Of a DNA stretch of 64,000 nucleotides, positions 61,000-62,157 are shown piece after piece (the stretch's first letter is position 1; each line of letters begins with the position of its first letter). The notes under the pieces are model-generated. The model worked only from the letters and a program-made list of their open reading frames with translations, was not told where the DNA came from and searched no databases. Made by a program: the position numbers and the translations under genes. This stretch comes from Bryobacteraceae bacterium (GTDB lineage Bacteria; Acidobacteriota; Terriglobia; Bryobacterales; Bryobacteraceae), in assembly GCA_044358225.1 (NCBI GenBank), contig JBIKOG010000008.1:15595-79594 (forward strand), in the 5' to 3' direction.

Positions 61000-62157
61000 A
61001 TGAACGAGATCGAAGGCAATGTCAAAGAGGTAGTCCGCGAGAAGTACGGTGAAGCCGCCCGCCGCGTCGCCACCGGGAAAACCAGCTGCTGCAGTTCCGA
61101 TCCAATCACCAGCGGCCTCTACACCCTCGCTCAATCGGAGACCCTCCCCGAAGCCGCCCTCCTCGCCTCCCTCGGCTGTGGCAACCCCACCGCCCTCGCC
61201 CAGCTCCAGCCCGGCGAAACCGTTCTCGATCTCGGCTCCGGCGGCGGCATCGATGTCCTCCTCTCCGCCCGCCGCGTTGGCCCCACCGGCAAGGCCTACG
61301 GTCTCGACATGACCGACGACATGCTCGCCCTCGCCCGCGACAATCAGCAAAAAGCCGGCGTCCAAAACGTCGAATTCCTCAAGGGCGAAATCGAACACAT
61401 CCCCCTCCCCGATAACTCCATCGACGTCATCATTTCCACCTGCGTCATCAACCTCTCCGCCGACAAAGACAGCGTCCCCCGCGAAGCCTTCCGCGTCCTC
61501 AAACCCGGCGGCCGCTTCGCCGTCAGCGATGTCGTCGTCCGCGGCGAAGTCCCCGCCGAACTCAAACGCAACGTCGAACTCTGGGTCGGCTGCGTCGCCG
61601 GCGCCCTCGAAGAATCGGACTACAAAGCCAAACTCACCACCGCCGGCTTCACCTGTGTCGACCTCGAACCCACCCGCGTCTACACCGTCGATGACGCCAA
61701 AAGCTTCCTCACCGAATCCGGCCTCAACACCCCCGAAATCGCCCAGCAAATGGACGGCAAATTCGCCTCCATGTTCGTCCGCGCCATCAAGCCCATCGCC
61801 ACCGTCGAAGTCTTCGACCCCGCCATGTGCTGCTCCACCGGCGTCTGCGGCCCCGCGCCCAACCCCGTCCTCCCCCGCTTCGCCGCCGATCTCGATTGGC
61901 TCGCCTCCCAAGGCGTCACCGTCCTCCGCCACAACCTCTCGCAGGACCCCGCCCCCTTCGCGGCCAACGACGCCGTCAAAGCCGCCCTCACCGAAATGGG
62001 AACCGATTGCCTGCCCCTCATCATCGTCAACGGCGAAGTGAAATCCAAAGGCAAATACCCCGTCCGCTACACCCTCGCCCACTGGGCCGGCGTCCCCATG
62101 AACAAGCCCGTGGAACTCCCCGTTCTGATGTCCAGCGGGCCCACGTCATGCTGCTAA
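61000..62157 (+). CDS. arsM: Fusion protein: As(III) S-adenosylmethionine methyltransferase (ArsM) + ArsD metallochaperone
   Basis: ArsM: 'SCC', 'LGCGNP', '[11 protein letters not shown]', 'IISTCVINL', 'WVGCVAGAL'. It continues in frame at about nt 61795 into ArsD '[17 protein letters not shown]...LPLIIVNGE...GPTSCC'. Confidence 0.85.

Follow-up and report, generated by a model that had tools for sequence, protein, structure and literature searches.

An in-frame ArsM-ArsD fusion upstream of arsA in a Bryobacteraceae bacterium: a candidate link between arsenite methylation and efflux

Methylation of As(III) gives rise to volatile arsenic and to trivalent methyl species of greater toxicity. To our knowledge, ArsD is the only known arsenite chaperone, and neither the supply of As(III) to the methyltransferase ArsM in the cell nor the split of arsenite between methylation and efflux is settled. 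ArsD binds As(III) through Cys12, Cys13 and Cys18 and passes it to ArsA, thereby shifting the As(III) level needed for ArsA activation from mM to μM; a model calculated with AlphaFold 3 sets these three residues against the cysteines of ArsA (PMC12415280). The genes arsD and arsA lie side by side in almost all cases (PMC6205960; PMC2963123). ArsM is loaded with As(III) from As(GS)3 in three thiol-transfer steps and cycles through Cys-Cys disulfides that require a reductant, for which thioredoxin has been proposed (PMC6138428). Fusions among ars genes are well known as a kind: ArsR-ArsC, Acr3-ArsC, AqpS-ArsC and ArsN-ArsC/ArsD fusions have been described (PMC6205960), and an ArsSM fusion is cited in PMC12124457. 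They unite two arsenic-handling steps in one polypeptide, and ArsD already occurs in them as a partner of ArsN, but none joins a methyltransferase to a chaperone. Such a protein, encoded by a single gene (arsM::arsD), is described here from a Bryobacteraceae bacterium (GCA_044358225.1, contig JBIKOG010000008.1, positions 15,595-79,594 of the forward strand; this whole stretch of 64,000 nt is referred to as the window). The housekeeping protein PurF encoded in the window shares 89% identity with a protein labelled Acidobacteria bacterium and 80-82% with proteins of Bryobacteraceae and Acidobacteriia; the source is an uncultured acidobacterium of fresh water, near Bryobacterales.

Domains were called with Pfam and NCBIfam profiles at the following family cut-offs: NF008823, 263 bits; PF06953, 27 bits; NF033727, 90 bits; TIGR04291, 650 bits; and NF033733, 400 bits. 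Residues are numbered from the ATG at 61000. Conservation was read from 51 two-domain fusion proteins and gene context from 13 distinct lineages carrying the fusion. Unfused ArsMs for comparison were collected by a pattern scan of contigs with patterns lying within ArsM, in which 75 of the 80 loci encoded plain ArsM.

A full-length ArsM is joined in frame to a full-length ArsD in one open reading frame (ORF; Table 1), as had been proposed in the original prediction from the letters of the sequence. Both domains score above the curated cut-offs: residues 6-267 match NF008823 with 355 bits over profile positions 5-270 of 272, and residues 268-385 match PF06953 with 129 bits and the equivalog model NF033727 with 114 bits. 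The E-values of the two domain matches (1e-106 and 1e-37) exclude a chance ORF, despite the many spurious ORFs in this GC-rich DNA. The two profile matches abut and leave no space for a linker. The stretches quoted in the original prediction were all found in the translation ([31 protein letters not shown], then [29 protein letters not shown], and the terminal SCC). The ArsM part also matches Methyltransf_31 (E = 1e-35), carries a Rossmann-type S-adenosylmethionine (SAM) motif ([11 protein letters not shown]) and shows alternating strands and helices in an AlphaFold 2 model. At the junction the same model has a strand at residues 255-263 followed by another at 268-273; its predicted template modelling score of 0.71 is uninformative on the inter-domain geometry of a protein of 267+118 residues. 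The gap between the two domain envelopes is 0-15 residues in 55 of 61 fusion proteins, and the window protein lies at the short extreme.

Against the short-type bacterial ArsM (NF008823/PRK11873, with CmArsM, 4FR0, and CrArsM, 5EVJ, as relatives), the window protein has the full length of the 272-position profile, the SAM motif and the four catalytic cysteine positions, and differs in adding a complete ArsD at the C terminus. The catalytic cysteines are Cys30/31 (61087-61092), Cys60 (61177-61179), Cys148 (61441-61443) and Cys198 (61591-61593). In the alignment to 4fr0/5evj, Cys31 (with Cys30), Cys60, Cys148 and Cys198 fall on Cys44, Cys72, Cys174 and Cys224 of CmArsM, and all five are invariant in the 51 fusion proteins; the four conserved cysteine contexts originally claimed for the ArsM part are thus present. 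The residue before Cys148 is a separate observation. Thr147 (61438-61440; STCVINL) is private to this population, being found in the window, in L001 and L002 and in lake runs X1-X3 and X7, and Asn (SNCVINL) stands at this position in all 50 other fusion proteins, in the 97% relatives and in one river RNA contig.

The closest characterised counterpart of the ArsD part is R773 ArsD (PDB 3MWH/3KGK), to which it is ~50% identical over residues 3-104 and with which it shares the position of its gene immediately upstream of arsA. Cys277/278 (61828-61833) and Cys283 (61846-61848) align with R773 Cys12, Cys13 and Cys18, which agrees with the equivalents named in the original prediction; Cys277 and Cys283 occur in all 51 fusion proteins and Cys278 in at least 90% of them. 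Free-standing existence as a protein of about 120 residues, a trait of the ArsD family, does not apply here: the N terminus continues from the C terminus of ArsM with no stop between. The C-terminal vicinal pairs of R773 ArsD are reduced to a single terminal pair (Cys384/385, 62149-62154), which lies on a low-confidence tail of the AlphaFold model and is nearly invariant among the fusions. Judged by these alignments, both halves are complete, and neither lacks any residue that its own activity is known to require.

Two NCBIfam models, the ArsM/AhpD selenoprotein NF041537 and the ArsM/DUF2284 selenoprotein NF041536, likewise describe an ArsM that continues into a thiol-rich accessory domain. 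The window protein falls far short of the cut-off of either (185 bits against 510 for the former, 162 against 575 for the latter), and only its ArsM part matches; it has no AhpD or DUF2284 domain, and the two models have no ArsD module.

Translation most likely starts at the ATG at 61000, since close homologs have 385 residues. The ORF is open from an ATG at 60949, and a start there was rejected because it would overlap with the beginning of arsR, because homologs have their first residue near 61000 and because a 97% relative has two in-frame stops upstream of 61000. In that relative (L083, 9780-10001, equivalent to window 60950-61000) the codon at 61000 is ATT, and the later Met picked by the gene caller would drop the first catalytic cysteine pair. 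The 328-residue call of relative P0007 was considered as a truncated form and rejected as such. Its length reflects the choice made by the gene caller: ATT replaces the ATG in this relative, and the residues upstream are conserved.

The junction (61780-61810), for which a check of read-level support had been advised, was followed in environmental sequence data. The region is contained in 20 lake-water metagenome runs, where the evidence rests on assembled contigs. Contigs of four lake DNA runs cover the junction with zero differences, no indels and no joints (one spanning contig each in X2, X3 and X7, and two overlapping contigs in X1), and contigs of two river metatranscriptomes from a 97-98% relative cross it as well (X27 at 61723-61980 and X26 at 61773-61929), again without indels. 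As a sign of transcription the latter are supportive rather than conclusive, because RNA libraries can contain DNA. The identical protein, flanked by the same arsR and arsA, is present on contigs of two further JGI samples. The idea that the fusion is an assembly or sequencing artefact (a chimeric contig or a lost stop) was rejected as having a negligible probability: nothing was found in its favour, and it is ruled out by the junction-crossing contigs of six runs, the two JGI samples and more than 100 homologous fused clusters from NCBI, JGI, ENA and Logan. Run X1 also holds contigs of other organisms that share a stretch coding for [14 protein letters not shown] (window 61810-61853), preceded there by an ATG only a few codons away; these contigs represent free-standing arsD genes, which occur alongside the fused form in that lake sample.

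Co-linear full-length homologs were sought, and the architecture proved to be common. Among the 120 best-scoring clusters formed at 90% identity, methyltransferase domains and PF06953 occur together in 102; these 102 are 57-98% identical and were drawn from the four sources named above. An AhpD/CMD domain (PF02627) with an NCEPC motif is added between ArsD and the terminal CC in 46 of the 102; these three-domain ArsM-ArsD-AhpD/CMD proteins have ~474-500 residues (relatives P0026-P0100, for example in L005, L094, L095 and L004). An exhaustive search of representatives gave at least six fused 50%-identity clusters (P0004, P0266, P0273, P0280, P0283 and P0337); the more remote members share 43-50% identity with the window protein and have linkers up to roughly 50-100 residues. 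Two-stretch matches in the same search were rejected as fusions, being tandem methyltransferases or CMD-ArsM-ArsM proteins. Named carriers belong mostly to the Acidobacteriota.

The original prediction had named an already widespread annotated architecture as something that would refute it. Widespread the architecture is, and the Pfam domains of the fusion are precomputed in public data, but each of the names given in databases takes account of a single domain ('arsenite methyltransferase', 'arsenite efflux transporter metallochaperone ArsD' or 'AhpD family'). A full-text literature search, with most subscription journals outside its scope, found no description of an ArsM-ArsD fusion, in line with the earlier remark that none was known to have been characterised. 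The fusion is therefore common but unrecognised, and not unique.

The window has the layout arsR ← / → arsM::arsD-arsA, in which the fusion takes the place that arsD has in an arsD-arsA unit. That arsA is the next gene and overlaps by 10 nt had been stated beforehand and is exact: arsA, identified by TIGR04291, starts with the ATG at 62148 and the stop of the fusion gene lies at 62155-62157. The fusion gene is translationally coupled to arsA. The metalloid-binding cysteine contexts of ArsA are found at residues 112 (SGACT), 168 (SCLGP) and 398 (SPCTEE), equivalent to Cys113/172/422 in the alignment to 9nbl/1f48. Across lineages, arsA follows the fusion directly in 11 of 13, usually with overlapping stop and start codons and with no separate arsD. 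No arsA was found within 3.7-6 kb of the fusion in the other two (L003 and L004), where the cysteine triad is kept.

Table 1. Coordinates of the arsM::arsD gene and its neighbours in the window, and gene orders at loci carrying the fusion
Feature	Position	Strand	Details
arsM::arsD fusion gene	61000..62157	+	385 residues plus stop; ORF open from ATG 60949
ArsM domain, residues 6-267	61015..61800	+	NF008823; alignment to 4fr0/5evj
Junction ...[16 protein letters not shown]...	61780..61810	+	ArsM profile ends at residue 267, ArsD profile starts at 268
ArsD domain, residues 268-385	61801..62154	+	PF06953, NF033727; alignment to 3mwh residues 3-104
arsA, two-domain arsenical pump-driving ATPase	62148..63833	+	TIGR04291, 752 bits; alignment to 9nbl/1f48
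arsR-family repressor, divergent	60618..60950	-	Only cysteines are vicinal Cys94/Cys95 (AECCTR)
Major facilitator superfamily (MFS) transporter, best match ArsK (arsenite/methylarsenite efflux)	57651..58850	-	NF033733, 196 bits, below cut-off 400
Gene order, window and L083-L087			arsK-like MFS, arsR (divergent), fusion, arsA
Gene order, L088, L092, L093			arsR (divergent), fusion, arsA
Gene order, L090			arsC, arsC, arsR (divergent), fusion, arsA
Gene order, L089, L094			fusion, arsA, acr3
Gene order, L091, L095			arsR, arsC, arsC, fusion, arsA, acr3
Gene order, L005, L006			fusion, arsA
Gene order, L003 (Bryobacter), L004 (Bryobacterales)			arsR, fusion, acr3

The most likely origin of the fusion is the gene order arsM-arsD-arsA. 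Separate arsM, arsD and arsA genes stand in this order in one related genome (L014), plausibly the condition before fusion. Fused and unfused proteins are intermingled on a crude neighbour-joining tree of 141 ArsM domains, with nine parsimony changes, and the free ArsDs of acidobacterial arsDA operons, 64-76% identical to the fused ArsD domains, are nested among them. This nesting indicates that the fused ArsD is an ordinary ArsD and not a diverged derivative. The crude trees agree in suggesting repeated gains or losses of the fused state.

The reading that we favour, and to which we give about an even chance of being correct, is that of a bifunctional protein whose ArsD module would serve ArsA in trans and also feed the tethered ArsM, so that the fusion would act at the branch point of efflux and methylation. 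In this scheme the ArsD module would capture As(III) by thiol exchange at Cys277, Cys278 and Cys283 and would hand it to ArsA in the manner of a free ArsD; in the operon the fused ArsD is the only ArsD available to its ArsA and stands in the usual chaperone position. Being tethered to ArsM almost rigidly and nearly without a linker, it would probably also supply the methyltransferase by raising the local As(III) level at the Cys148/Cys198 site, and the two modules would be made at a fixed 1:1 stoichiometry. A partitioning of As(III) between methylation and ArsA, as raised in the original prediction, is a plausible possibility. Several points weigh against the bifunctional reading. The two arsA-less lineages retain the triad, so delivery to ArsA is not obligatory; a domain of ~30 kDa placed nine residues before the first As-binding cysteine (Cys277) might hinder docking on ArsA; distances between ArsM halves and between ArsD halves correlate only moderately (r = 0.45); and no arsB or acr3 gene was found within 61 kb upstream or ~10 kb downstream, the downstream part being seen in a syntenic relative.

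Sequence alone does not separate this reading from three others. The ArsD module might act solely in cis, as a built-in antenna that collects As(III) or methylarsenite (MAs(III)) for ArsM and replaces the Cys-rich C-terminal extensions of other ArsMs, with the adjacency of arsA a historical leftover. Fusions with acr3 and no local arsA in two lineages mean that delivery to ArsA cannot be the only role, and the persistence of an intact triad there supports a role in cis, while being compatible with one in trans elsewhere. The near absence of a linker in the window and its shortness in most other proteins point the same way, as do the nearly invariant CC on the low-confidence tail, the thiol-transfer loading of ArsM (PMC6138428) and a fusion of the ArsD fold to another client, an HMA/P1B-type ATPase, in L004. 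We nevertheless regard a purely cis-acting module as unlikely, because arsA lies directly downstream and translationally coupled in 11 of 13 lineages with no other arsD to serve it, and because the fused ArsD domains are not a diverged subfamily. An equally small probability is assigned to a neutral or stoichiometric merger, in which adjacent genes were joined by loss of a stop and spacer and the domains work independently, co-expression being the sole benefit. The unfused arsM-arsD-arsA order in L014 and the ease with which the state flips on the ArsM tree fit this explanation, and ars gene fusions such as ArsR-ArsC, Acr3-ArsC and ArsN-ArsD are common (PMC6205960). Against it, the fusion recurs and has been kept in several clades between proteins as deeply diverged as 43% identity, and the three-domain form persists too; recurrence and retention argue for selection, without proving functional coupling.

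Far less probable still is a helper function in redox chemistry, by which ArsD, together with the CxxC-containing AhpD/CMD domain of the longer forms, would re-reduce the Cys-Cys disulfides of ArsM and would not carry arsenic. The fold of ArsD is thioredoxin-like; we know of no redox activity of ArsD. ArsM turnover does need disulfide reduction (PMC6138428), nearly half of the fused clusters (46/102) have the CMD/AhpD domain with its NCEPC motif, and NCBIfam holds models for ArsM/AhpD selenoprotein fusions. The ArsD part itself keeps the As-binding C-C-x4-C triad, has no CxxC redox motif and scores as a chaperone equivalog, all of which speaks against this function.

The neighbouring ArsR bears on the substrate that the unit may handle. 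[quoted passage not shown] Going by its cysteines, the window ArsR, with the vicinal pair and no third cysteine, may be of this MAs(III)-selective type. The same two-Cys pattern is found in five of the eight ArsRs beside fusions, all five in minimal loci without arsC or acr3; the remaining three, in arsC-containing operons, carry extra C-terminal cysteines. An operator search of the 49-nt spacer between arsR and arsM::arsD found no inverted repeat. The minimal locus of the window consists, besides the fusion and arsA, of this two-Cys, possibly SpArsR-like ArsR and the ArsK-like MFS transporter, with no arsC or acr3. That the minimal fusion unit is tuned to methylarsenite is a possibility suggested by these patterns, and is to be taken as a lead, not as a result. 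The bifunctional reading can be extended accordingly to a two-client chaperone (ArsM in cis, ArsA in trans) that would set the ratio of methylation to efflux, in units that at minimal loci may sense and handle methylarsenite and not inorganic arsenite; this extension is doubtful, though a little less so than the cis-only and neutral explanations. If it were true, the two-client ArsD would become the first metallochaperone demonstrated to work for an enzyme that transforms arsenic.

A tblastn search of the 64-kb window found no acr3, no arsC, no second arsD and no second arsM; arsC is also absent from ~10 kb downstream in the syntenic relative. The ArsK-like MFS transporter is the only candidate arsenic permease in the window, and its gene lies directly downstream of arsR in close relatives. 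In the window the two are separated by a 1.8-kb insertion (58817-60617, minus strand), relative to relatives whose flanking DNA is 91-96% identical. The insertion carries a flavoprotein gene (58814-60097) with a weak ArsO-like match and three vicinal CC pairs in the C-terminal tail of the product, and a gene for a SigZ-like extracytoplasmic function (ECF) sigma factor (60104-60628) with a Cys-rich C terminus (CC...C....C). Further away, a segment of ~215 nt between DUF418 and Mrr-like genes (window 56486-56837 vs L083 6770-7213) matches the relative at several offset places, as would be expected of a tandem repeat present in different numbers of copies in different strains.

Other fusion loci showed peculiarities of their own. 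The arsR-arsC-arsC-arsM::arsD-arsA-acr3 operon of L091 (1030-4454) adjoins TrbI and relaxase genes, which suggests carriage on a conjugative element. In L095 (7472-10351) a gene of 959 codons has ArsA and SBF (Acr3) Pfam matches, the result of either a fusion of ArsA to Acr3 or a frameshift left uncorrected, and in L092 (7158-8898) the ArsA call is split into two genes, with 272 and 318 codons. L004 (2-2752, minus strand) encodes an ArsD::HMA::E1-E2 ATPase, that is, a P1B-type ATPase with an N-terminal ArsD-like domain followed by HMA. The HMA domains of P1B-type ATPases offer an analogy, and an analogy only, for a soluble chaperone fold tethered to a possible client; unlike there, the client of the window protein would be a methyltransferase and, in trans, ArsA.

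The interest of the fusion lies in the hypothesis that it makes testable. A recurrent covalent link between methyltransferase and chaperone is a Rosetta-stone hint that the two cooperate, and it provides a ready-made construct for testing this. Because the fusions are annotated after one domain only, surveys that count arsM or arsD genes may miscount them. Acidobacteriota are abundant in soil and fresh water and, as most named carriers belong to this phylum, the fusion may matter for the speciation of arsenic in the environment.

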